From positions 15,717 to 79,716 of the forward strand of contig DATFKK010000087.1 of assembly GCA_035268685.1 (NCBI GenBank): a stretch of 64,000 nt of DNA, in the 5' to 3' direction. Positions 17 to 55,004 of this stretch are shown in pieces (position 1 is the first letter of the stretch; each line of letters opens with the position of its first letter). The position numbers were made by a program, and so were the translations under genes. Origin of the DNA: Candidatus Krumholzibacteriia bacterium (lineage in GTDB: Bacteria; Krumholzibacteriota; Krumholzibacteriia; JAJRXK01). The notes beneath the pieces are model-generated. The model searched no databases and was not told where the DNA came from. It worked only from the letters and a program-made list of their open reading frames with translations.

Positions 17-2884
17 GTGACCGTGCATCTGCTGCAGCTGGACATCCGGGGCTTCGGACGTCTGCGGGGGCGTGTCCAGCTCGATGCCGGTGACGGTGCG
101 ATCGGACTCCTGCTCGAGCGGAACGAAGCCGGCAAGTCGACGCTGGCGGCGGCCCTGCTCGCGGCACTCTACGGTCTCGACGGCGACCGCCGGCGCTTCC
201 GCGGCACGATCACCGACCTCGACCGCTACCGTCCGTGGTCGGAGGGTGCCTACGGGCTCGCACTGACTCTGCGGCACGAGGGCCGGGAGTACACCGTCGA
301 CCGTGACTTCACGCACGGCACGGTGCGCGTGCTGTGCGGTGCCGACGACGTGACCGATCGCTTCCGTCGCGGACACGCGGTGGCCGTGGGGGAGACCTTC
401 ACCGGGCTCCGGCTCGAGCAGTTCACGGCGAGCGTCTTCGTCGGGCAGGGCGATGTCGTCTGGAACGATCCCGAACGCCTGACCGAAGCCCTGCAGCGCG
501 TGGCGGACACACAGTCCGGCCGATCGACGGCGGCGGCTGCGGTCGAGGCACTCGATCGCGCGCTCGACCGCTACGACGGCCTCACGCTGGCACAGCCGGG
601 CAAGGTCGACACCGAGATCCAGCGCTGCGAGGCCGTGATCGCCGAGGCTTCGTCCGAACTCACCGCACTCGAGACGGGTCACGCGGCGCTCGAGGAGCCG
701 CTCGCCGCTCTCGAACGGAGCCGCGCGGCTGCTCTGGAGGACGACCGACGACGACAGCGACTGCGGCTCCGCCGATTGCGCACCGAGCACGCAGCCGTCC
801 GACGCGTGCTCGACGACGACACGGCCGTGGCCGACGAGATCGCGTCGTTGCGTTCCGCTCTCGACACCGCCGCCGAACTCGACACACGGCTGTCCGAGCG
901 CCGTACACGCGTGCAGCAACTGCGGCGCGAGCACGAGCACCGTGCGCACGATCTCGAGCGCGAACACGAGGAGCTCCGCCGCGCCGACGCCGAGATCGAA
1001 GCACAGGAGGCGGCGGTGCGGAACACCGGACTCGCGTACGTGCCTTCCGACGACGAGATCGATCGCCTGCACGACGCCGCGCGCCGGCTCGCCGACGCGG
1101 GCGAGGAGCACGAGACCTACCTGCGGCGTCTCGACGAGGACCGCACGGCGCTCGCTGAGCTCGGTCATGATCTCGACGAGGTCCTGTCGCTGGCGCATGC
1201 CTTCGAAGGTCTGACCGACGCCGACCGCGTGCTCCTGGTGGGCCGCGGCGCCCGGCGCGGTGAACGCGACGCCGCACGGCGTGATCACGACAGCATCCTG
1301 GATCGGGCTGCCCACACGCTCGAAGACGTGGCCCGGGCGCGTTCGCGACGCCGACGTCTGGGGTGGGGTGTGCTCGCCCTGGCCTTCGCGGCGACGGCGG
1401 TCCTGTTCGTCGCCGGTCCCCGGCTTCCGGCACCGCCCGCGGTCCTGCTCGTGGCCGCGGCGTCCCTCGCCGTGGGCGGCGGGGTGATCGGGCTCACTGC
1501 TCCTCGGCACCGTGGGCGCGACGCAACGGTCGCGCGGGCCACGATCGAAGCCGCGTCCGACGCCCGGGAACGACTCGACGCCGAGGAGAGCGAGGAAGAG
1601 CGGCGATGGATCGCCCTGGCCGCTCGTGTCGGCATCGATACCACCGACCTGGCGTCACGCTACGCGACATGGTGTCGTGTCGAGCACTACGCCCGCAGCG
1701 CGTCGGTGCATCGCGCACGCGCCGACGAATGGCGTGCGACGCGGACTCGCGCGCTCGACGCTGCCGGTGGGTTCGAACAGCTGTTCGGCGAGTCCGCCCT
1801 CGAAGTGCGGGTGGAGTCGTGGGTCGATCGTGCCCGGGCCGCACGCGCCGAGAGCGAACGTCTGGACACCGTGCGTCGGCGCGCCGACGCACGCCGGGAG
1901 CAACTGCGGGAGCTGCAGGTGCGGCATCACGAGCACGAAACGGTCCTGCGCGAGGAATGCCGCGCACTCGGTGTCGACGTCGACGGCCGACCACTCGGCC
2001 AGGTGCTGGCGGACTTCGAGACGCTCGTCGAAGACGGGCGTGGGCGGGAGGAGATCCGCGAGCACCGGATCCCCCTGCTCGAACGTCGGCGGCTCGACCC
2101 GGAAGGGCGCCACGCCCACCGGGACCGTCTGCGGGCGATCGAAGCGGAGATCGAGACCCTCGAGCCCGCATTCGTCGACGATGAGGACGCGGAGCGTCCC
2201 CTCGACGCCACCGACTACGAGGAAGCACTGAGCGCGCTCGACGAGAGAGCCCGTCGCAGTCGGTCCGAGGACGAAGTGCGCCGCGACGAGACCCGCAGCT
2301 TCCTCGCCGAATACGAGACGCGCGCGCCCGACCTGCGCGAGCGCATCACCTCGCACGAGCGGGCGCTGCAGCGGGCCCGTGAGCACCGGGCGGCGGTCGA
2401 GCTCGCCCGCGACACCCTCGCTCGTCTCGGGCAGCAGACGCACCGGCTGTGGGCCGCGTCGATCCAGCGGACCACGGGAGACTTCCTCCGCCGGATGGGC
2501 AGTGAGGTCGACGAGGTGCGCTTCGACGAGAACCTGGGCCTGAGGATCCGGCAACACGATCGCGTGTTCACGGGGCACGAGGCGGCGCGTATCCTCTCGG
2601 CGGGAGCGCTCGACGCGGTGTTCCTGGCCGCGCGGTTCGCCGTGGCCCGGTTCCTGGGGGGCGATCGAGACCCTCTACCCCTGGTCCTGGACGATCCGCT
2701 CGCGAACGCCGACGATCGGCGTCTGCTCGACACCTTGCGTCTGCTGATCGAAGCGGTCGCTCCCCAGCAGCAGGTGCTGCTCATGGCCTGCCAGCGCTCG
2801 CGTTACGAATGGGCGGCGTCGCGACTCGAGCGACCCGATTCCCTGCGCGCGCTCGAACTCTCCACCGACGGCGTTCCACGCTGA
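17..2884 (+). CDS. SMC/Rad50-like AAA ATPase (YhaN-type, coiled-coil)
   Basis: N-terminal Walker A motif ERNEAGKSTLAAALLAALYG. Long R/E/A/L-rich coiled-coil middle. C-terminal Walker B/D-loop LVLDDPLANADDRRLLDTL. GAGGAG Shine-Dalgarno before GTG at 17. Upstream partner, if any, is cut off by the window edge. Confidence 0.6.
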   Translation: MTVHLLQLDIRGFGRLRGRVQLDAGDGAIGLLLERNEAGKSTLAAALLAALYGLDGDRRRFRGTITDLDRYRPWSEGAYGLALTLRHEGREYTVDRDFTHGTVRVLCGADDVTDRFRRGHAVAVGETFTGLRLEQFTASVFVGQGDVVWNDPERLTEALQRVADTQSGRSTAAAAVEALDRALDRYDGLTLAQPGKVDTEIQRCEAVIAEASSELTALETGHAALEEPLAALERSRAAALEDDRRRQRLRLRRLRTEHAAVRRVLDDDTAVADEIASLRSALDTAAELDTRLSERRTRVQQLRREHEHRAHDLEREHEELRRADAEIEAQEAAVRNTGLAYVPSDDEIDRLHDAARRLADAGEEHETYLRRLDEDRTALAELGHDLDEVLSLAHAFEGLTDADRVLLVGRGARRGERDAARRDHDSILDRAAHTLEDVARARSRRRRLGWGVLALAFAATAVLFVAGPRLPAPPAVLLVAAASLAVGGGVIGLTAPRHRGRDATVARATIEAASDARERLDAEESEEERRWIALAARVGIDTTDLASRYATWCRVEHYARSASVHRARADEWRATRTRALDAAGGFEQLFGESALEVRVESWVDRARAARAESERLDTVRRRADARREQLRELQVRHHEHETVLREECRALGVDVDGRPLGQVLADFETLVEDGRGREEIREHRIPLLERRRLDPEGRHAHRDRLRAIEAEIETLEPAFVDDEDAERPLDATDYEEALSALDERARRSRSEDEVRRDETRSFLAEYETRAPDLRERITSHERALQRAREHRAAVELARDTLARLGQQTHRLWAASIQRTTGDFLRRMGSEVDEVRFDENLGLRIRQHDRVFTGHEAARILSAGALDAVFLAARFAVARFLGGDRDPLPLVLDDPLANADDRRLLDTLRLLIEAVAPQQQVLLMACQRSRYEWAASRLERPDSLRALELSTDGVPR

Positions 2885-12896: not shown

Positions 12897-13862
12897 TCAA
12901 GACTCGCTGGCCTCGGTCTCGGCCGTCAGGATGGCCACGCGGACCTCGGGGGGTGACTTCCTGCGGTCGATGCTGACCACGCGCACGGGGATCTCCTGTC
13001 CCACCTCGTAGTAGGCGCCGGCATCGGGTACGAAGCCGCGGTTCATGTCCTTCACGTGCAGCAGGGTCTTGGCGTGCTGATGCAGGTCGAGGAACACCCC
13101 GTACTTCTTGACCGTCTGCACACGGCACTCGACCACGTCGCCCACCTCGGGGAGGTCGATCGACTCGGGGTCGATGGGTTCCGGTGCCATGCCCGGTTCG
13201 TATTCGTCGTCGTACTCGTCATCGTACTCGTCGTACTCGTCGTCGTATTCGTCTTCGTACTCGTCGTCGTACTCGTCTTCATCGGCGGCTGCCCTCGAGG
13301 GGGCTTGGGCCTGGGTGCCGTTCTCGCGCCGCTCCCGCGGCTCTGGCGGACGTTTGTCGCTCTCGACTGCGTCGCGCAGGTCGTTGAGGTCGATGAAGTT
13401 CACGCCGACCTGCTGTCGCAGTTCCACCGCCACGTTCTGGGGCGTGGCGGCCACCATCACGCGCTTGCCCCGGCGTTGCAGGGTCTCGAGGAGCGGGACG
13501 AAGTCGCTGTCGCCGGTGACGAAGACCGCCGTGTCGTAGTGGTCGGCCTCGCTGAGTGCGTCGATCGCCAGTTCGATGTCCAGGCTGCCCTTCATGTGGT
13601 AGGTGCCCGACGTCCGGTCGAAGACCTGCTTCAGCACCTTCTTGCGGATGGAGAATCCGATCAGGGTCAGGTGGTGCAGGAAGCGCTCCTGCTCGGGTTC
13701 CGGAGTGCGGTTGTAGGCCTGGTACCAACGCGCCGCCACCAGCTCACGGCCTTCACGCATGGCCGCGAGGAATCGCGGCCATTCGATCCACCAGCCGAGT
13801 GCTTCCTTCTGGGCGAAATAGACGTTGGCGCCATCGACGAAGATGGCCACACGTTCGGCCAT
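12897..13862 (-). CDS. NYN-domain (LabA-like) nuclease fused to S1 RNA-binding domain, acidic (DEY)n linker
   Basis: NYN signature VAIFVDGANVY ... VFVTGDSDFVPLLETLQRRGKRV. C-terminal S1-like GDVVECRVQTVKKYGVFLDL. Linker EYDDEYEDEYDDEYDEYDDEYDDEYE is encoded by tandem nucleotide repeats. Confidence 0.65.
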   Translation of the reverse strand: MAERVAIFVDGANVYFAQKEALGWWIEWPRFLAAMREGRELVAARWYQAYNRTPEPEQERFLHHLTLIGFSIRKKVLKQVFDRTSGTYHMKGSLDIELAIDALSEADHYDTAVFVTGDSDFVPLLETLQRRGKRVMVAATPQNVAVELRQQVGVNFIDLNDLRDAVESDKRPPEPRERRENGTQAQAPSRAAADEDEYDDEYEDEYDDEYDEYDDEYDDEYEPGMAPEPIDPESIDLPEVGDVVECRVQTVKKYGVFLDLHQHAKTLLHVKDMNRGFVPDAGAYYEVGQEIPVRVVSIDRRKSPPEVRVAILTAETEASES

Positions 13863-14138: not shown

Positions 14139-15194
14139 CTAGTCGACGCGAACCAGCGTGCCACCCCGGCGCTCGACGGTGCCGATCCGTGCAGCCTGCT
14201 CGTAGCCGGCCGCGCGGAGTGCCCGCAGGGCGTCTTCGGCCCGATCCGCGGGAACGCTCGCCACGAGGGGGCCGGAGGTCTGTGGATCGTGCAGGAGTTC
14301 GGCCCGTTCCGCCGCGAGTTCGCGCGTGATCTCCATGCGCTCGACGGCGTGGCGCGTGTTGGCCTGTGCGCCGCCGCACGTGAAGCCCTCGGCCAGCATC
14401 TGCAGCGCACCCGGGAGCTCGGGAATGGCCTCGTGGTCGAGACACAGCGTCACGTCGCTGGCCTCGGCCATCTCGGCCATGTGTCCGCTCAGGCCGAATC
14501 CTGTGATGTCGGTCGCGGCGCGGGCCCCGTGGGCGCGGGCGATCTCGGCGGCCGGGCCGTTCGAGGTCGTCATGCCTCGGACGAGGTTCTCGAACCAGGG
14601 GTCGTCTTCGCCGAAACGTCCGCTCTTCAGCGCGGTCGACAGGGCCGAGGTGCCGATCGCCTTGTTGATCAACAGCACCTCGCCCGGTCGGGCATGGCGG
14701 TTGGTCAGGAGCTCGTCGGGGTGGATCTCGCCGACCACGGCCAGTCCGAACTTGAGCTCGGAGTCCTTCACCGTGTGGCCGCCGAGAACCGGGCACGACG
14801 CGGCGAGCGAGGCCTCGCTCGCACCGGCCAGCACCTCACGCAGGGCCTCGGCCGGGATCTTCGGAGAGAAACACGCCACGTTCAGGGCCATGAGCGGCCG
14901 GGCGCCCATGGCGTAGATGTCGCTGATCGAGTTGGTGGCCGCGATGCGCCCGAAGGTGAAGGGATCGTCGACGATCGGTGTGATCACGTCGACCGTGAAC
15001 ACGATCGCGCGGTCCTCGCTCACACGATAGACGGCGGCGTCGTCGGCGGGCTCGAGCCCGACGAGAATGCGGTCGTCGTCCGGGATCTTCGGCAATCCCT
15101 GCAGCACGATCTCCAGGTCCCCCGGAGCGAGCTTGGCCGCTCAACCGGCGGCGCTGGCGTACTGCGTCAGACGGATCCGTTGCTCGTCACTCAT
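14139..15194 (-). CDS. selD: selenide, water dikinase (selenophosphate synthetase), Sec-containing selenoprotein (in-frame TGA at 15143..15141)
   Basis: N-terminus MSDEQRIRLTQYASAAG-U-AAKLAPGDLEIVLQGLP aligns with E. coli SelD [23 protein letters not shown], with TGA at the Cys17 position. Downstream AIR-synthase-like domain motif DITGFGLSGH. The ORF track starts at the internal Met at 15107. Confidence 0.8.
15111..15127 (-). promoter_or_regulatory. candidate SECIS-like hairpin 14 nt downstream of selD UGA
   Basis: mRNA CUCCGG-GGGAC-CUGGAG forms a 6-bp stem with a 5-nt loop just 3' of the recoded UGA. Consistent with, but not diagnostic of, a bacterial SECIS. Confidence 0.3.
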
Positions 15195-15213
15195 GGCTCA
15201 CCCCCTTGCGTGG

Positions 15214-16479
15214 TCAGAACGTGAAGGTGTCCTCGAACACGAAGACGTCCTCGCCGTCGTCGGTACGGGCCCACTCGAAGCGGAAGTTCCGCGTGTTGAA
15301 GTTGAAGTGCAAGCCCAGCCCGGAGCTGAAGCGGACTTGCTGATCGGCGAGGTCGGCGTCGTGCGCCCACGAGGTTCCCCGGTCGTGGAAGGCGTGCACG
15401 CCCACGCCGATGGTGCGGCCCTCGCGCAGCGGGAGCAGCAGCAGGGGACGCCGCAGCTCGACGCTCGCGCGCCAGGCCTCGTCGCCGACGAGACTGCCGA
15501 AGTCGACACCCCGGAGACTCATCGGTCCCCCGAGGTAGACCTTCTGGTAGAACGGAAGCGCGGTGTCGGTGGCCCGGAAGGCGCCGTTCACGCCCAGCAC
15601 GGTCGCCACGAGCGGCAGCGTGCGGAAGGCCGACAGCGAGATCGAACCGATCGTGTAGTCCTCCACGCCGTTGCTCATTCCACCGCGGAGGAGCTCCCCG
15701 CGGCCGTGGAGGCCGTGTCCCGGGTAGTAGCGCACGTCGCGACTGTCGTGGACCAGTCCGAGTGCGACGGCCGGGTCCTGGTCGATGCCGGCCCCTTCGA
15801 GCTCGAGCTCGCGCCAGCCGACCCGTGCCCGGACCGTCACCCACGGGTCGAAGGCGCGCCACACGCCCGCACTCGCGCCCCAGTCGGTGAACTCGTCGCG
15901 GGGGTCGATCGCACCGAGCTCGTATTCCCACTCGTACTGTTGCCAGTGGGCGGCGACGAACACGCCGAGACGCGCGGGGCCGAGGATCCACGGGTTCTGC
16001 CACACGATCCGGGCGCCACGCCGTGACCACGCGCTGACTTCCAGGTCCACGCTCTCGGCCCGGCCGGTCAGATTCAACCAGCCCAGGCGTAGCGTGCCCA
16101 GGAAGGATTCTCCGTAGCGCCGGCTGTACTCGAGTCCGGGCGCCCAGCGGAAGCGGGTGTCCTCTTCCACGCGCACGACCAGCTCGACGCGTGTGGGATC
16201 GGGGCGGATGGTCTCGATCTCGACGTAGGCGATGAAGTCCAGCGCCTCGAGGCGTTCCCAGGCTTCGCCGACGCGTTCGGGATCGTACTCGTCGCCGGCC
16301 TCGATCCGGAACGTGCGCTGCAGGACGTAGTCGCGGGTGATCTCGTTGCCGACGAACTCGACGCGTTCGACGGTCCTCTTGCCGCGGTTCTGCAGGAAAG
16401 GGTTCTGTGCCCCGGCCGGTGGGACGGGCAGGAGCAGGGCGACGATGAGCAGTGCGTAGAGCGTGTGCCGCAGGGACAT
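15214..16479 (-). CDS. Omp85/BamA-TamA family outer membrane protein (POTRA + beta-barrel)
   Basis: Signal peptide MSLRHTLYALLIVALLLPVPPAGAQ. POTRA-like VERVEFVGNEITRDYVLQRTF. Barrel ends with C-terminal ...FEDTFTF (terminal Phe). Confidence 0.7.
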   Translation of the reverse strand: MSLRHTLYALLIVALLLPVPPAGAQNPFLQNRGKRTVERVEFVGNEITRDYVLQRTFRIEAGDEYDPERVGEAWERLEALDFIAYVEIETIRPDPTRVELVVRVEEDTRFRWAPGLEYSRRYGESFLGTLRLGWLNLTGRAESVDLEVSAWSRRGARIVWQNPWILGPARLGVFVAAHWQQYEWEYELGAIDPRDEFTDWGASAGVWRAFDPWVTVRARVGWRELELEGAGIDQDPAVALGLVHDSRDVRYYPGHGLHGRGELLRGGMSNGVEDYTIGSISLSAFRTLPLVATVLGVNGAFRATDTALPFYQKVYLGGPMSLRGVDFGSLVGDEAWRASVELRRPLLLLPLREGRTIGVGVHAFHDRGTSWAHDADLADQQVRFSSGLGLHFNFNTRNFRFEWARTDDGEDVFVFEDTFTF

Positions 16480-26622: not shown

Positions 26623-27582
26623 TCACGGAGACGAGATCGTCATCGACGCGGGTGCGCCCTGCACGCTGCGTTCGGCCAGGGTCTCCACGGCCTTCATCGC
26701 CCCCGCGGCGACGGCGGCGAGGAAATCCATGGCCACGTCGAAGTCGTCCTCGAGCACGTCGAAGAGCGCTTCGTGATTCCCGCGCAACGTCGTGACGTCG
26801 GTCCGGGCCACGGGGGTGTACCAGCGCTCTCCCCGGGCCAGGGTCTCGAGGTTCCCCAGCGGGTAGCCGCGTCCTGCTTCGAAGGTGCCGCCGTCGGGAA
26901 GACGGCACTCGACCTCGCCCTCGAGGATCACGAGCAGATGATCGGCCGTCTCGCCGGGCCGCCACAACTCGGTTCCACCGGTCCAGCGTTCCTGCCGCAT
27001 GGACGTCGCCATCAGCATGAGCGCCTCGAGCCCCAGGTTGCGGAAGATGTTCCCGCGTCTCAACAGCACGAGGCGTTCGACCGCGTCGAGCGATCGCTTC
27101 GGCAGGCTGACGGCCTCGCCGGTCCACGGCACACGGCTCGATCCCGCCACGATCCGCGGCATGATCTGCAGATGGTACGACGCCACGTTGCGCAGCAGGT
27201 TCTGCAGCAGACGGAAGTTCTCCTCGAGCGCGGCCACGATGGCATCGAGTTCGAACACGAGCGCGACGCCCTCCGTCGCCGCCCGCGCCTCGAAGTTCGG
27301 TTCCACCCGCGAGAGCGCGGGGATGATTCCCACGTTCTCACCGCTGCCGCACGAGACGATCTCCCGGCCGTGGCTGAACACGGCGACCTGGCCGCTCACG
27401 ATCACGAAGAAGCGATCGACGGGTTCGCCCTCGCGCAGTACCAGGTCACCTCGACGCAACACGACCTCTTCGGCCTGGCGCGAGAGCGCGGTCAGGTCGC
27501 GGGTCGCGATGCCCTGCAACTGCGGAAGCGTACGCAGGTAGAGCAGGCGATCGATCGGTCCGACGAAGCGTGGATCACTCAT
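26623..27582 (-). CDS. tandem cyclic-nucleotide-binding domain protein
   Basis: Two cNMP-binding beta-roll units (RGDLVLREGEPVDRFFVIVSGQVAV... and HLLVILEGEVECRL...). Start MSDPRFVGPID at 27582 overlaps the end of the upstream gene. Confidence 0.65.
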   Translation of the reverse strand: MSDPRFVGPIDRLLYLRTLPQLQGIATRDLTALSRQAEEVVLRRGDLVLREGEPVDRFFVIVSGQVAVFSHGREIVSCGSGENVGIIPALSRVEPNFEARAATEGVALVFELDAIVAALEENFRLLQNLLRNVASYHLQIMPRIVAGSSRVPWTGEAVSLPKRSLDAVERLVLLRRGNIFRNLGLEALMLMATSMRQERWTGGTELWRPGETADHLLVILEGEVECRLPDGGTFEAGRGYPLGNLETLARGERWYTPVARTDVTTLRGNHEALFDVLEDDFDVAMDFLAAVAAGAMKAVETLAERSVQGAPASMTISSP

Positions 27583-30352
27583 GTCCGAGCAACTCCGTCT
27601 CGGGTTGATCGAGCAGTACCAGCGCGCGGGCCACGACCTGCTGTTGCACCAGGGGCGGCTCGTCGCGCAGGGCCAGGAGGGCGTCGCGGAACGACGTGAG
27701 CCCCAGTTCACCGATGTGGTGGATCGTGATGCACCGCATGCCCAGGCTTCCCTGTTCCAGGAACGACGCGAGCGTTTCCTCGTAGGTCCACGGACGCGGC
27801 GTGTAGAAGGCCAGACCGCGGCGGAGCCGCTCGTCGTCGGGAAGGTCGTCGACGAAGCCGAGCAGTCCGTCGCGGAGCGGAGCCTCGAGTGTGGCCGCGA
27901 TCAACTCGTGCGCACTGGCGTGGTCCTCGGCCCGGTCACTCTCCAGGCCGTTGTAGATTCGTAGCCAGTCCTCTTCGGGCAACAGCAGATCGAGCAGACG
28001 GAACATCCGTTCGCGGGCGTGCGCCTCCTTGTGCTCGAGCGTGTGCAGCAGCAGTTCGTGGACCGCCGTCGCCCGCCGGGGGGCGGTGCGGGCTCCCTCG
28101 CGCAGGGCGGCACGCCAGTCGAGCAATCGGAACGCGCCCGACAGTGTCAGCTCGAGCGCCTTGCGCAGCGTGTGTCCGTCGAGTCGCAGATCGCGGTCGA
28201 GTCGGCGCAGCGACCCCAGTCCCCGCAGGATCTTGAACCGCACCAGGCCGTCGCGGACGGTCAGCAGATGGCGCATGAGCACCGACGCGGCGGACTCCGG
28301 ATCGAAGCGGGAGATGGTGCGAGGTACGTGGCGGCGGACGTTCTGGGCCCTGGTCTCGTCACCCAGGGCACGGTCGAGGGCTTCGAGGGCCGGATCGCCG
28401 ATCGAGACGAGGGCGGCGCGGGCTTCGCTCCGGACGTCGCGTACCGGGAGCATGGCGATCAGAGGTTCGATGAACTCCTCGCTCCCGACCGCGCGCATGG
28501 CGATCGCCGTCTCGCGGCGGACCTCGCGGTCCTGCTTCTGTGCGAACTCGATCAGCAACGAGGTGTGGATGGGATCGGGCTGGTCCTGGATCGAGAGCAC
28601 GAGTGCCCGCGCTTCGACGTCGTCGGCGTCCTTGGCGATGTTCCGCAGGACGGTAGCCGCGTCGTCGCCCTTGATCCAGCCCGCGGCCACCAGGGTGACC
28701 AGGGCCGTGGCCCGCACGACGGGCGAGGGATCGTCGAGGTAGGCGGAGAGTTGGCGATTCACGTCGGGGGCGAGGATCGCACGTGCTCGCAGGACACCGC
28801 CACGAATGGCTGCGTCCTCGTGGTCGGCGATACGCTCGAGGATCGGGAGGGCCTCCTGGCGTCGCGTACGCGCGAAGAGGTGCAGGGCGCGGGTGACCAC
28901 CGTCTTCGACGGGTGGTACAGGATCAACGCGGGGATGAGGTGCACGCGGTCCTGTTCGGCCAGCATGTCCATCGCCGCGACGACCTCCGAGTCGTTCACG
29001 CTGTTCAGACGTTCGATCAGTTTCTCGAGCGAGGCCAGGTCGAGCTCGGGGAATTCGACCTCCGACAACACGTCGCGTTCGCTGAGGGTCGTACGGAACA
29101 GGTCGAGGTAGTGCCGGCGGATGTCGCGGGCGAGGCGGATCCACGACACGCTCAGCGCGATCACGCCGGCGGCGAGGACCATCTCCGAGCCCGGGAGCGC
29201 GACGGCCACCAGGATCACCAGCGAGGCGACCGCCTGTCCCCCCCGCTGGCCGAGCACGTCGACGAAGGTCTTCACCTGCTCGCGGACGGTGCGCGAGAGC
29301 GGCACGTAGAGCGTCTCGATCGAGGTGCGGTGCAGCGAATGGCGCAGCGACCCGTCGACCACCTTCAGCACCAACGCCGGCACCAGCAGGATCAACGGCG
29401 AGATCGTGTAGACGATCATCAACAGGCCCGCCCCGACCACCAGCAGCGCCGGGGTCAGACCCAGCACCCGGTTCAACCCGAAGCTCCGGAGCAGGACGCT
29501 CACCAGCGTCAACTGGAACAGCAGCGACAGCAGGTTGAGCCCCAGGTAGGTGGTCGCGAAGAAGCTCGCCAGATCGGAGCCTTCGAGCTGACTGGCCACG
29601 ATGCTCTTGAACAGGTAGTCGGCGAAGGTCAGCGCGATCGTCGACACCACGACGAGCCCCAGCAGTCTCTTCACGTAGGGGCGGTGCAGGATCGTGCGCG
29701 TGGCCTGTTTCCAGTGCAGCGCATGCGAGGGGTGGCGGTGTTCGGCGTCGCGTCCGCGGGCCTCCTCCGCGGTGCGCAGGAGGGCCATGGGCAGCAGGCC
29801 GGTCAGGCCGAGGATCCCCGACGCGACCAGCAGGAAGTGGCGCGGCTCGACGATCTCGCTCAGACCGCGCGCCAGGCCCGACCCCACGATCGCTCCCAAC
29901 ACGCTCCCCGCGCCGATGATCGCGAACACGCGCTTGGCCTGGGTGACGGTGAAGACGTCCTCGACCACCAGCCAGAAACGCGTCACGACCATGGTCGCGA
30001 AGACACCCGCCCACACGTACAGCACGTACAGGACCCACGGTGGGGGCGCGGCTCCGAGCAGGGCCCACAGTCCGGCCGTCACCACCGCCGAGCCCAGGAC
30101 CAGGACCGCCAGCACCAGACGGTTGCTGCGCGCGATCGGATACCGGGCCTGCCATTGCATGAGCCCGATCGAGGCCAGCGCGATCAGCAGGTAGACCCAG
30201 GGGAGCTGCGACGCGGGGAGTCGACCGAGGAACAGCGCGTCGCGCGCGGTCTCGAGCAACGCGTGACCGGCCAGGATGCCGAAGAGCGTGATCGTCGCCC
30301 CGAACACGAGACGGCGTTCCGCGGGACGGACCGTCGCCTTCAGTTGGATCAT
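27575..30352 (-). CDS. polytopic transporter (TLC/MFS-like, ~12 TM) fused to C-terminal HEAT-repeat domain
   Basis: N-terminal 440 aa are hydrophobic with ~12 TM helices. C-terminal ~480 aa show periodic Ala/Leu/Arg-rich HEAT/PBS-like helices (ALVLSIQDQPDP..., AIAMRAVGSEEFIEPL...). Confidence 0.6.
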   Translation of the reverse strand: MIQLKATVRPAERRLVFGATITLFGILAGHALLETARDALFLGRLPASQLPWVYLLIALASIGLMQWQARYPIARSNRLVLAVLVLGSAVVTAGLWALLGAAPPPWVLYVLYVWAGVFATMVVTRFWLVVEDVFTVTQAKRVFAIIGAGSVLGAIVGSGLARGLSEIVEPRHFLLVASGILGLTGLLPMALLRTAEEARGRDAEHRHPSHALHWKQATRTILHRPYVKRLLGLVVVSTIALTFADYLFKSIVASQLEGSDLASFFATTYLGLNLLSLLFQLTLVSVLLRSFGLNRVLGLTPALLVVGAGLLMIVYTISPLILLVPALVLKVVDGSLRHSLHRTSIETLYVPLSRTVREQVKTFVDVLGQRGGQAVASLVILVAVALPGSEMVLAAGVIALSVSWIRLARDIRRHYLDLFRTTLSERDVLSEVEFPELDLASLEKLIERLNSVNDSEVVAAMDMLAEQDRVHLIPALILYHPSKTVVTRALHLFARTRRQEALPILERIADHEDAAIRGGVLRARAILAPDVNRQLSAYLDDPSPVVRATALVTLVAAGWIKGDDAATVLRNIAKDADDVEARALVLSIQDQPDPIHTSLLIEFAQKQDREVRRETAIAMRAVGSEEFIEPLIAMLPVRDVRSEARAALVSIGDPALEALDRALGDETRAQNVRRHVPRTISRFDPESAASVLMRHLLTVRDGLVRFKILRGLGSLRRLDRDLRLDGHTLRKALELTLSGAFRLLDWRAALREGARTAPRRATAVHELLLHTLEHKEAHARERMFRLLDLLLPEEDWLRIYNGLESDRAEDHASAHELIAATLEAPLRDGLLGFVDDLPDDERLRRGLAFYTPRPWTYEETLASFLEQGSLGMRCITIHHIGELGLTSFRDALLALRDEPPLVQQQVVARALVLLDQPETELLGHE

Positions 30353-35565: not shown

Positions 35566-36258
35566 TCAGCCGGCGGCGCGGTGACCTCCGTGCATGCGCG
35601 GCGACACCGGCAGCGACTCGATCGTTGCCGCTTCGATCTCGCTGCGGCGGGCCAGCTCCTCGCGCACGACCTCGGGGTCGAAGTAGCCGTCGGCCAGGGC
35701 CACGAACATGTGCGCATGGCCACTCTCGCTGCGGGCCAGGCGCTCGTAGAACGTCGCCAGGTCCTCGCCTCCCTCCACGCGACCCGCGAAGGGGCCGCGC
35801 AGGCCGCGCGTCAGCGCCAGGAAGCGCTCGCAGGATCGGGCTTCGATCATCGCGCACACGAGCAGGTCGTCGAGCAGCGCGAAGTCACCGCCGCGCCGGT
35901 CGCGGGCCATGCCCTTCATGTAGGGATTCGGCAGCGGGCGCGAGGGAGATCCACCGCGGTCGAGCAGGACCTGCCGGACCATGCGGTAGTGGACCATCTC
36001 CTCCTTGGCCAGGCTCGCCATGCGGCGCACCAGCTCGTCGTGCTCGGGAAAGCGGCCGACGGTGGCCAGGGCGTTGGTGGACGCCTTGAGTTCGCACTGT
36101 GCGTGGTCGTCGAGCAGGACGTCGACGGCGGACAGGGCGGCCTCGACCCACGTGTCGCGGGTGGGACAGCCGAGCGGAACGGAGGCGGTCACCGTGGCCA
36201 GAGTACGTTCGTGTTCGGCCAGGGCGACCACGTCGGGATGCGAAATCGGAGCGTTCAT
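35566..36258 (-). CDS. miaE: tRNA-(ms2io6A37)-hydroxylase
   Basis: Ferritin-like di-iron motifs HAQCELKASTNAL, EEMVHYRMV, EARSCERF, ESGHAHMF. ATG 36258 (MNAPISHPD). Confidence 0.7.
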   Translation of the reverse strand: MNAPISHPDVVALAEHERTLATVTASVPLGCPTRDTWVEAALSAVDVLLDDHAQCELKASTNALATVGRFPEHDELVRRMASLAKEEMVHYRMVRQVLLDRGGSPSRPLPNPYMKGMARDRRGGDFALLDDLLVCAMIEARSCERFLALTRGLRGPFAGRVEGGEDLATFYERLARSESGHAHMFVALADGYFDPEVVREELARRSEIEAATIESLPVSPRMHGGHRAAG

Positions 36259-38679: not shown

Positions 38680-39066
38680 TCACACCGCGACGGGGTGCAG
38701 CTCACGGCTCAGGTGATCGAACAGGCGCTGCGCTTCGTCCATGTGGAAGGGCTTGCGCAGGCACCGGTGCGCCCCGCGCTGGAAGGCACGGTCGACCAGC
38801 CCGCTCTCCGAGAAGCTGCTCGCGGCGACGATCCGGGTGTTCCCGGCCAGGTCGAGCATGAACTCGCTCAGGGCGAAGGCGTCGACCTCGCCGGGCAGGT
38901 GCAGGTCGAGGATCACGACCTCGGGCTGCTCGCGTTTGAAACACTCGATCGCGTCGGATGCGCGTTCCACGGGTGGGAGGACCCGGAATCCCCTGGACTC
39001 GGCGGCCGCGATCAGCAGGTGCCGGTAGGTCGGATGGTCGTCGACGATCAGGACCCGGGTCTTCAT
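38680..39066 (-). CDS. stand-alone response-regulator receiver (CheY-like)
   Basis: MKTRVLIVDDHPTYRHLL...VVILDLHLPGE...CLRKPF. No output domain. Confidence 0.65.
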   Translation of the reverse strand: MKTRVLIVDDHPTYRHLLIAAAESRGFRVLPPVERASDAIECFKREQPEVVILDLHLPGEVDAFALSEFMLDLAGNTRIVAASSFSESGLVDRAFQRGAHRCLRKPFHMDEAQRLFDHLSRELHPVAV

Positions 39067-39279: not shown

Positions 39280-40362
39280 TCAGTTGCCGCCCTCGACGGT
39301 GCGGAGCTCCAGGGAGTCGAGGGTCATCGACGGCGGGCGGTAGCGCAGCAGACAACCCACACCACCCACGCGGTCGAGGCGATCGTTGCCGCCGACGAAC
39401 TCGACGGTGCAGCCGCGGCGCTGGGCAGCACGCAGGATCGGCTCGCGGCCGTCGGTGTCGTAGTCGTGCGCCATGATCAAGAGGTCGGCCTGGTCGTGCT
39501 CGAGCGCGGCGAGGCATCGGCGTGCACCCACCACGGCGAGCCCGTCGCGGTACAAGGCGTCGAAGAGAGCGTCGACCAACGACAGCGACTCGCGCTGTTC
39601 CTCCTCGACGAAGGTGGACAGTGTCGCGGTGACGACGTCCTCCACCGACGTCCGGCCGCTGGCCGGGAGCTGGTCGATCACGATCTCGCGGAGTCGCCCG
39701 GGAAGAGCATCGCGGACCTGCGCCAGGAGCCGCGGCACGCCGGCGAGCACCAGGTGCTGGTAGCCGCCGGTGTCCGTCCGTGCCTCGAGGACGCCGATCA
39801 TCTCCTTCACGAAACGCTGTGTGCGATCGCGTCGATGATTGCGGTAGTGCTCCCGGGTCCACTCGCGGCCGACACGACGGCGGATCTCGGGCCGCTCCTT
39901 CCAGATCTGCCGGGTCACCGCGCCCAGGTGTACCTCGAGGATCCGCATGCTGTCCTCGGTGCAGAGCAACACCACGTAGCGATGGAAGGCATCCTTGAGT
40001 GCGCACAGGTCGTACACGCTGGGCAAGGTGTCGACGACGACCGCCTCGCGGGACATCTCGACACGGAACTCCAGCGGCAGGAAGACGGGGTCACCGCCTC
40101 CGCGGGCGTAGACGACGGCGCCGCGGGTGTCGGCGGCCAGGTCGTCGTCGATCCAGCGCTCGATCCGGGTCCGGGCTTCGTCCAGGCTGTGCCGGCGATC
40201 GGCGGGAAGGTCCGTCAGGACGGGCCGGATCCGCTGCTGCAGGCGCTGGCGGATCGCCGACCGACCCCCGGTGCAGTCGAGAACGGCGGTGATGAGGTGG
40301 TCGTCGGTTTCGTCGAGCGTTGCGATGTGGCGCAACGACTGCTCGAGGTCTTCGATTCTCAT
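39280..40362 (-). CDS. bacterial aeRF1/Pelota-like release-factor-family (baeRF) protein
   Basis: C-terminal eRF1-domain-3-like GLAVVGARRCLAALEHDQADLLIMAHDYD ... GCTVEFVGGNDRLDRVGGVGCLLRY (compare the eRF1/Pelota GGIAAILRY end motif). Central VVYARGGGDPVFLPLEF. Confidence 0.55.
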   Translation of the reverse strand: MRIEDLEQSLRHIATLDETDDHLITAVLDCTGGRSAIRQRLQQRIRPVLTDLPADRRHSLDEARTRIERWIDDDLAADTRGAVVYARGGGDPVFLPLEFRVEMSREAVVVDTLPSVYDLCALKDAFHRYVVLLCTEDSMRILEVHLGAVTRQIWKERPEIRRRVGREWTREHYRNHRRDRTQRFVKEMIGVLEARTDTGGYQHLVLAGVPRLLAQVRDALPGRLREIVIDQLPASGRTSVEDVVTATLSTFVEEEQRESLSLVDALFDALYRDGLAVVGARRCLAALEHDQADLLIMAHDYDTDGREPILRAAQRRGCTVEFVGGNDRLDRVGGVGCLLRYRPPSMTLDSLELRTVEGGN

Positions 40363-53876: not shown

Positions 53877-55004
53877 ATGGACGGGCGCTCCCTCCCCGAT
53901 CCCGCGCAGGTGCTCGACCGGGCGCGGGCGGCGGGCTTCGACGCCGCCGGCATCGCACCCGTTTCGGTGCCCGAACACGAGGAACCCCTCCGCGCGTGGT
54001 TGGCCGCCGGCCACCACGGCGGCATGGAGTGGATGACGCGCAACACCGAGGTGCGCGTCGACCTGCGCACGCGCTTCTCGTGGGCGCGCAGCGCGATCGT
54101 GGTGCTGCGCTCGTACCGAGTCGATCCCGGTCGGAGCGGACTCGCGCGCTTCGTGTCGAGCTACGCGCAGGGGGTCGACTACCACGACGTCCTGCTCGAG
54201 CGCCTGCACGATCTGGAAGCGGTGTTGCGCGCCGACGATGCGGGTTTGCAGTCCCACGCCTACGTCGACACCGGCCCCGTGCTCGAACGCCAGCTCGCCG
54301 AGGCGGCGGGCCTGGGCTGGACGGCGAACAACACCTTGTTGCTGCACCCGCAGCACGGCAGCCGCTTCTTCCTGGGTGTGCTGATCACCGACCTGCCGCT
54401 CGAACCCACGCCGGCGAAGTCCGGATCGTGCGGGACCTGCCGCGCCTGCCAGCCCGCGTGTCCGACCGGTGCTTTCGTCCGGCCCGGTGTGCTCGATGCC
54501 CGTCGTTGCATCAGCTACCTGACCATCGAACACCGCGGTCCGATCCCGCGCGCGCTGCGCCCGGCCATGGGGCAGTGGTTGTTCGGCTGTGACCTGTGCC
54601 AGACGTGTTGTCCGTTCGAGATCGGTGCTTCCGATGCCGGCGATCCGGCCTTCGAGGGGTCGGAGGCGTTGCTCGAGGTGTCGTTGTCGTCCTTGCTCCG
54701 CCTGGACGATGCGGAGTTCCGCGCGCGCTTCCGCAGGACGCCGTTGTGGCGCCCACGGCGGCGGGGACTGCTGCGCAACGCGTTGATCGTGGCGGCGAAC
54801 GGCGAGCACTTCGACTGCGTGCCGGCGGCGGTGGACCTGCTCGGCGACGCCGAGCCCGTGCTGCGGGAGGCCGCGAGCTGGATGCTGGCGACGTTGGGCG
54901 TCGAGGATGCGCGGCCGGCGATCGCGACGGCGCGGGGGTGTGAGGACGAGGAGTGGGTCGTGGCCGGGATGGACGAGGATCTCGGGCGGTTGGGTGTGCG
55001 GTGA
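53877..55004 (+). CDS. queG: tRNA epoxyqueuosine(34) reductase
   Basis: CGTCRACQPACPTGAF and CDLCQTCCPFE 4Fe-4S motifs. QueG N-terminal pattern and C-terminal HEAT-like tail. Confidence 0.85.
   Translation: MDGRSLPDPAQVLDRARAAGFDAAGIAPVSVPEHEEPLRAWLAAGHHGGMEWMTRNTEVRVDLRTRFSWARSAIVVLRSYRVDPGRSGLARFVSSYAQGVDYHDVLLERLHDLEAVLRADDAGLQSHAYVDTGPVLERQLAEAAGLGWTANNTLLLHPQHGSRFFLGVLITDLPLEPTPAKSGSCGTCRACQPACPTGAFVRPGVLDARRCISYLTIEHRGPIPRALRPAMGQWLFGCDLCQTCCPFEIGASDAGDPAFEGSEALLEVSLSSLLRLDDAEFRARFRRTPLWRPRRRGLLRNALIVAANGEHFDCVPAAVDLLGDAEPVLREAASWMLATLGVEDARPAIATARGCEDEEWVVAGMDEDLGRLGVR

Follow-up and report, generated by a model that had tools for sequence, protein, structure and literature searches.

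The selD locus and its reading frame

The window, meaning the whole stretch of 64,000 nucleotides analysed here, carries on its minus strand a selD gene of 351 codons plus a stop codon (14139..15194). Read from the sequence, the frame opens with ATG (15194..15192), closes with TAG (14141..14139) and contains a single in-frame TGA (15143..15141), the putative selenocysteine (Sec) codon 18. From the ATG, 17 sense codons (MSDEQRIRLTQYASAAG) lead to the TGA, after which translation in the same frame continues with AAKLAPGDLEIVLQGL; past the TGA the frame reads AAKLAPGDLEIVLQGLPKIPDDD and so on until the TAG. The translation, the TIGR00476 and NF002098 profiles and a match to the structure 3u0o all support this full-length coding sequence. 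An earlier note on this DNA had described an in-frame UGA in selD that the list of open reading frames overlooked, and the frame, the position of the TGA and the codons upstream of it are as it described them. The listed gene, which starts at GTG 15107 and encodes 322 aa, is the portion of selD that lies 3' of the TGA. Its GTG (15105..15107, minus strand) is a false start shared by the list and by public gene calls, the 322-aa product being called on 8 public contigs; in the real protein this codon is Val30.

The true start is the ATG at 15192..15194 (minus strand), the sole start codon between an in-frame stop (15200..15198) and the TGA. Since this in-frame stop, also a TGA, lies one codon 5' of the ATG, ATG 15194 is the only possible start of the extension. 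A Shine–Dalgarno (SD)-like AAGGGGG (15201..15207, minus strand) ends 6 nt upstream of it, with GGAGG or GGGGG at the same place in relatives from the clade, and the equivalent ATG is kept in five related loci (L007 and L092-L095). The BamA/TamA-like gene upstream stops at 15216..15214, 19 nt ahead of the selD ATG. Directly downstream of selD lies a gene for a protein with NYN and S1 domains (12897..13862, minus strand), which contains a long acidic repeat tract, DEYDDEYEDEYDDEYDEYDDEYDDEYE.

Codon usage points to translation of the extension. Under a log-odds model trained on 19 annotated genes from the same contig, the 18-codon extension of selD scores 0.43 per codon; real genes here score about 0.3–0.5 and non-coding frames are negative. 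When every TGA in the window was scanned in all six frames, 3 sites only had coding signal on both sides, and the selD site is the strongest by far (0.44/0.50). The other two proved to be a gene-start overlap and an antisense frame, neither of them a credible Sec site. Of the 53 complete genes called in the window, 45 end in TGA, which is therefore a normal stop codon here and has not been reassigned genome-wide. The in-frame UGA of selD is real and stands above chance.

Identity of the product and the catalytic position

For profile scoring, Cys was substituted at the TGA of the 351-aa protein. TIGR00476 (SelD) then gave 331.1 bits against a cutoff of 125, and NF002098 gave 303.4 bits against a cutoff of 299, with residues 4-344 placed on profile positions 3-338. 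Because this second match begins at residue 4, the N-terminal extension belongs to the family model. The best match among solved structures is E. coli SelD (3u0o, E=7e-62; residues 4-346 against chain residues 3-341). Query residue 4 thus pairs with chain residue 3, which places the TGA (residue 18) on Cys17 of the E. coli AGCGCK motif and Lys21 on Lys20.

The N-terminal loop G-[C/U]-x-x-K is present, as AG-U-AAK in the window compared with AG-C-GCK in E. coli, and the motif was found in all 86 related loci examined. The AAG codon of Lys21 (15132..15134, minus strand) follows from the alignment of AGCAAK with AGCGCK; across 74 sequences its AA is invariant and its third base is A or G, which gives Lys in every case. 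The corresponding E. coli Lys20 is a residue whose catalytic role we take from established knowledge of SelD. The Asp-rich segments are aligned and conserved relative to E. coli, and a PurM-like two-domain architecture, AIRS plus AIRS_C (PF00586 and PF02769), is recorded for the called product. These family matches support the identification of the gene as selD, whose product would be selenide, water dikinase (selenophosphate synthetase). Both the assignment to SelD, for which the earlier note had suggested a TIGR00476 check, and the placement of the TGA at the E. coli Cys17 position hold up, the latter through the 3u0o alignment and the conserved Lys three residues further on.

Integrity of the sequence across assemblies

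Six contigs from differing samples, assemblers and archives were compared with the window: four ENA assemblies, the NCBI MAG GCA_964585125.1 and the Logan assembly of SRR5210210. The 1122 bp compared take in the intergenic region, the ATG, the TGA and the hairpin described below; five of the six contigs are identical to the window there, and the sixth has one synonymous change outside the hairpin. The TGA at 15143..15141 is the same in all six. Given this agreement among independent assemblies, an assembly error or frameshift at 15141-15143, which had been named as a finding that would overturn the reading, is ruled out.

Alternation of Sec and Cys codons in relatives

Related selD loci were gathered by scanning one genome per GTDB species. 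This returned 80 loci, and the motif was located in 77 of them; the homologous codon is TGA in 73 and TGT or TGC in 4, and the upstream peptide ..RLT....AG is conserved. Across 86 related selD loci the counts are 78 TGA and 8 TGT/TGC. By record titles the loci cover at least ten phyla, and the titles include Acidobacteriota, Spirochaetota, Thermodesulfobacteriota/Syntrophia, Chloroflexota (Dehalococcoidia), Verrucomicrobiota, Lentisphaerota, Armatimonadota, Zixibacteria, Marinimicrobia and Firmicutes. This alternation of TGA and TGY at one codon, together with the alignment and the six assemblies, is the basis for reading the UGA at 15141..15143 as a probable Sec codon equivalent to E. coli Cys17, and it agrees with the earlier statement that Sec occupies this position in known Sec-containing SelDs.

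Closer relatives retain the whole arrangement. Four more members of the window's own clade, at 58-74% identity, keep the order POTRA/Omp85, selD, NYN/S1, and they also keep an SD sequence and an ATG 17-18 codons 5' of the TGA with the peptide MS..ERIRLT[QE]YA..AG-TGA-AAK. Over the range of 58-89% identity, clade relatives retain the SD and ATG, the peptide, the TGA, the hairpin and the synteny. The adjacency of selD and NYN/S1 is likewise kept down to 58% SelD identity. Outside the clade, the closest SelD found in the GTDB genome collection has about 47% identity.

The pattern of variation in the codons around the TGA is that of a protein. Across the 78 TGA-type genes, the first, second and third codon positions have entropies of 0.74, 0.71 and 1.65 in the ten codons 5' of the TGA; in the codons 3' of it the values are 0.74, 0.57 and 1.23. 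The excess at the third position 5' of the TGA is the signature of translated sequence.

The SECIS-like hairpin

Downstream of the UGA the transcript can form a hairpin with a 7-bp stem and a GGA loop (CUCCGGG-GGA-CCUGGAG; 15111..15127, minus strand). Its stem starts after a gap of 13 nt, on the 14th nt 3' of the UGA (15127), and its loop starts 20 nt after the UGA. The stem-loop first noticed, CUCCGG-GGGAC-CUGGAG, gains a seventh pair, G-C, which closes the GGA triloop; if this closing pair is open the loop has 5 nt. The free energy of the hairpin (15127..15111) is -9.2 kcal/mol.

The published consensus for bacterial SECIS elements (bSECIS) has a loop of 3-9 nt, an upper stem of 4-16 bp, a UGA-loop spacing of 16-37 nt and a minimum free energy of -7.5 kcal/mol or lower (PMC13188914, Fig. 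2 legend). Within its first two positions the loop has a G, most often as GG or GU (PMC13188914). The selD hairpin falls within all four limits, with its GGA loop, 7-bp stem, 20-nt spacing and -9.2 kcal/mol. Taken as a single sequence, a 62-nt fold is no more stable than its shuffles (z=-0.39), and a 161-nt fold is marginal (z=-1.82). Since the hairpin is unremarkable when considered alone, it was tested comparatively.

For the covariation test, 74 TGA-type genes were aligned without gaps in codon register (A1); in this alignment the named stem pairs columns 20-26 with columns 30-36. RNAalifold returned an empty consensus structure for this 74-sequence alignment, and the named structure was therefore tested instead. 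In the named stem 88.3% of cells are paired; sliding the 3' partners by 1-3 columns lowers this to 21-52%. Covariation in the named stem is 0.365; the slid controls do not exceed 0.172, shuffles give 0.201±0.013, and none of 500 shuffles reaches 0.365. Individual pairs change in a compensated manner across the 74 genes: no sequence leaves pair 25-31 unpaired (GC in 52, AU in 15, GU in 4), and pair 26-30 is AU in 21, CG in 18, GC in 13 and GU in 3. The changes in these two pairs fall on the synonymous first position of the Leu codon (CUG/UUG) and on a wobble position, so they are not explained by the protein sequence. The window hairpin itself differs from the majority by a double change, with an outermost C-G pair instead of G-C, where GCU (Ala) and GAG (Glu) replace AGU/GGU and GAC.

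The stem lies over codons for a peptide motif, S/A/G-P-x-x-L-D/E, that Cys-type enzymes share, and Cys-type selD therefore served as a control, one of 8 sequences only. On average 6.24 of the 7 stem pairs form in the 78 Sec-type genes, compared with 3.75 of 7 in the 8 Cys-type genes; at least 6 of 7 pairs form in 76% of the former (n=78) and 25% of the latter (n=8). The two Cys-type genes that retain the stem come from Acidobacteriota-type MAGs, as do many Sec-type genes. In Sec-type loops the first base is G in 83%, and the next is G or U in 90%. These comparisons support the view that the hairpin is specific to Sec-type genes, against a Cys-type control of 8, and that it has probably been kept by selection on RNA structure. 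The fit to the published bSECIS model, the covariation and the contrast between Sec-type and Cys-type genes bear out a stem-loop where a bacterial SECIS is expected, as the earlier note had proposed.

Several features near the hairpin are less general. A lower-stem extension pairing columns 14-19 with columns 39-44 forms 5 of 6 pairs in the window, and was rejected as a common feature with 17-41, 18-40 and 19-39 mostly unpaired in relatives. A hairpin in a shifted register, a few nt 5' and of the type AGGUCC-GGNG-GACCU, is seen in Spirochaetota and other Sec-type selD genes (e.g. L015, L025, L028, L056 and L062), and by eye it explains many of the unpaired outer-stem cells of the main register. 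A second local hairpin, GGGAUU-GCCGAA-GAUCCC (about 15098..15081, minus strand), lies 3' of the SECIS-like stem; it is found in the window and in L007 (89%), and not in distant relatives.

Searched with Rfam, the whole window matched no family at gathering thresholds, and 14900..15300 matched no SECIS family even at E<=10; near the site, the matches at E<=10 are two chance sRNA matches on the opposite strand. The Rfam models evidently do not cover the short SelD hairpin, and this result has no bearing on SECIS function.

Sec machinery and other candidate selenoprotein genes

No tRNA was found anywhere in the window by ARAGORN, and Pfam showed no SelA, SelB, SelU or YqeB/C among the 54 called window genes. 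Flanking sequence, about 7 kb to the left and about 1 kb to the right of the window, likewise held no selA, selB, selC or other selenium gene. The genes selA, selB and selC are often unlinked to selD, and they would be expected elsewhere in this genome. In three relatives a tRNA-Sec with anticodon TCA lies within a few kb of a TGA-type selD: an Acidobacteriota MAG (L046, 12970..13066), Lawsonibacter faecis (L059, 16327..16421) and an Armatimonadota MAG (L064, 1272..1361). This proximity gives circumstantial support for the Sec machinery. In a further relative (L098), a Cys-type selD (301..1374) is followed 75 nt downstream by selA (PF12390 and PF03841), which starts at 1450; there selD is tied to the Sec pathway and is not itself a selenoprotein.

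Codon-usage scoring and the six-frame TGA scan revealed no further split selenoprotein gene in the window. Gene pairs lying in the same frame and split by a TGA were considered, and they proved to be unrelated neighbouring families.

A 360-aa protein encoded elsewhere in the window (39280..40362, minus strand) matches baeRF_family10 and baeRF_family2, bacterial homologues of the archaeo-eukaryotic release factor, and its gene lies just 5' of a stand-alone response-regulator receiver gene (38680..39066, minus strand). A release-factor-like protein in a genome that recodes UGA is a curiosity, and nothing links the baeRF gene to recoding. tRNA-modification genes in the window comprise MiaE (tRNA ms2io6A hydroxylase; 35566..36231, minus strand) and QueG (epoxyqueuosine reductase; 53877..55004, plus strand), and no selenouridine synthase (SelU/YbbB) was found there.

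Proposed decoding and competing explanations

The selD product is very probably a selenoprotein, with Sec inserted at the UGA by the standard bacterial recoding mechanism. SelB-dependent decoding and the activity of the Sec-containing enzyme are what the sequence leads us to infer. In this model translation would start at ATG 15194, and the hairpin at 15127..15111 would recruit SelB·GTP·Sec-tRNA(Sec) through its apical GG loop, so that SelB could deliver Sec to the UGA (15143..15141) in the ribosomal A site. The Sec would then sit in the N-terminal G-U-A-A-K loop, where Cys-type enzymes have Cys, with Lys three residues later. The resulting 351-residue SelD would make selenophosphate from selenide and ATP, and selenophosphate would be the selenium donor for SelA. 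Because the synthesis of Sec-tRNA(Sec) needs selenophosphate, expression of selD would depend on its own product, a circularity already known for Sec-type SelD.

The TGA might instead be a genuine stop, with selD starting at GTG 15107 and the 87 nt upstream forming an untranslated leader or a tiny uORF. Every automated gene call gives the GTG start, TGA is the usual stop codon in the genome, and no Sec machinery lies in the window. However, a protein beginning at residue 30 would have no G-C/U-x-x-K catalytic loop, a part of the protein that SelD profiles cover from residue 4. Moreover, the 17 upstream codons are conserved as protein, with variability concentrated at the third position and with the SD and ATG, in the 58-89% relatives and in at least ten phyla; homologues have Cys codons exactly at the position of the TGA; and by eye there is no evident SD-like sequence 5' of GTG 15107. 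We consider a true stop here highly improbable. Scarcely conceivable is that the TGA arose by an error of assembly or sequencing, or that a nonsense mutation has recently turned selD into a pseudogene: the 1122-bp region shows 0-1 mismatch in the six contigs, none of them at the TGA, the TGA recurs in 78 related loci, and the rest of the gene is undamaged, with scores that exceed the family cutoffs. What speaks for it is the apparent absence of a GenBank protein accession, which resembles a pseudogene call.

Readthrough of the UGA as an amino acid other than Sec, by near-cognate insertion of Trp or Cys or by local SelB-independent recoding, is also very unlikely. What speaks for it is that both the Sec machinery of the genome and the identity of the inserted amino acid are deduced. 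Against it stand the agreement of the hairpin with the SelB-binding bSECIS model (loop sequence, size and spacing), its loss from most Cys-type genes, and a tRNA-Sec near TGA-type selD in three relatives. In addition, the site is the catalytic Cys/Sec position, and Sec forms of this family are amply documented (PMC13188914). Insertion of Sec is the preferred reading.

Comparison with known systems

SelD ranks second among prokaryotic selenoprotein families in how widely it is distributed, with Sec in its N-terminal loop (PMC1794560, PMC9312934, PMC13188914), and FdhA and SelD have the widest distribution among bacterial selenoproteins (PMC1794560, PMC9312934). That SelD can contain Sec and is then cut short by gene callers is textbook knowledge (PMC1794560, PMC9312934, PMC13188914). 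Like the Sec-containing bacterial SelD genes, the window gene has a UGA in frame within its N-terminal loop and a hairpin directly downstream. It differs from them only in its lineage and context, lying between the BamA/TamA-like gene and the NYN-S1 gene and not beside sel genes.

The SelD of Aquifex aeolicus (PDB 2yye/2zod) belongs to the same family and has the same AIRS plus AIRS_C architecture as the window SelD. Chain 2yye reads SSGCAAKVGPGDL, and its motif (SSG-C-AAKVGPGDL) is near-identical to that of the window (AAG-U-AAKLAPGDL); the native residue at the Cys of this motif is Sec. The E. coli enzyme (3u0o) shares the LTQY..AG-[C/U]-x-x-K N-terminus and the DDAAVY, Asp-rich and TD(I/V)TGFGL segments. 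It differs in having Cys (TGY) at position 17, where no recoding signal is needed, whereas the window gene has a UGA followed by the SECIS-like hairpin. The prototype bacterial SECIS is that of E. coli fdhF. Relative to the bacterial SECIS consensus (the bSECISearch model), the window hairpin conforms, but it is short and simple, has a triloop and belongs to no Rfam family.

Public annotation and significance

Public gene calls all shorten this SelD to 318-322 aa, and the 351-aa sequence with X or C at position 18 is absent from a collection of 15 billion proteins. Among the best 120 homologues listed there, 37 have Cys in the G-C/U-x-x-K motif and none has U; the remaining 83, all 65 closest among them, are without the motif. 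Neighbouring proteins of the window are exact matches to NCBI entries of a Candidatus Krumholzibacteria MAG, among them HKK71258.1 (PGI), HKK71261.1 (phospho-sugar mutase), HKK71271.1 and HKK71304.1 (IMP dehydrogenase). The genes flanking selD carry the consecutive accessions HKK71266.1 (NYN domain protein) and HKK71267.1 (BamA/TamA), and this numbering suggests that the GenBank record of the MAG is without a selD protein. Presumably the gene was flagged as a pseudogene or left uncalled.

The immediate consequence would be a correction of the annotation: the true selD product has 351 residues with Sec18, not 322. It would also mark this Krumholzibacteria lineage as a user of selenium and selenocysteine, which implies selA, selB and selC and probably other UGA-interrupted genes elsewhere. 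A search of the available literature library found no report linking Krumholzibacteria with selenium utilisation. The listed homologues also show that the miscalling of Sec-type SelD is systematic. When a Sec-type SelD is called without its catalytic N-terminus, selenium surveys based on proteomes misjudge such enzymes as truncated or inactive. The understanding of Sec decoding and of SelD is unchanged by these results. What is new is modest, namely the lineage, public records without the full-length protein, and one hairpin register common to Sec-type selD across many phyla.

A broader claim, to which we give about even chances, is that Krumholzibacteriota are an unrecorded Sec-decoding phylum in which SelD possibly sustains the trait, and that one hairpin, locked to a codon register over the S/A/G-P-x-x-L-D/E codons, is common to Sec-type selD in at least ten phyla. 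If this is true, the hairpin could serve as the basis of one covariance model or annotation rule that restores the N-termini of the many SelD calls that are truncated in public metagenome catalogues (83 of the best 120).

Elsewhere in the window, a 925-aa protein (27575..30352, minus strand) combines a membrane domain resembling TLC ATP/ADP transporters and MFS proteins with C-terminal HEAT repeats, and the 3' end of its gene is overlapped by one for a cNMP-binding protein.
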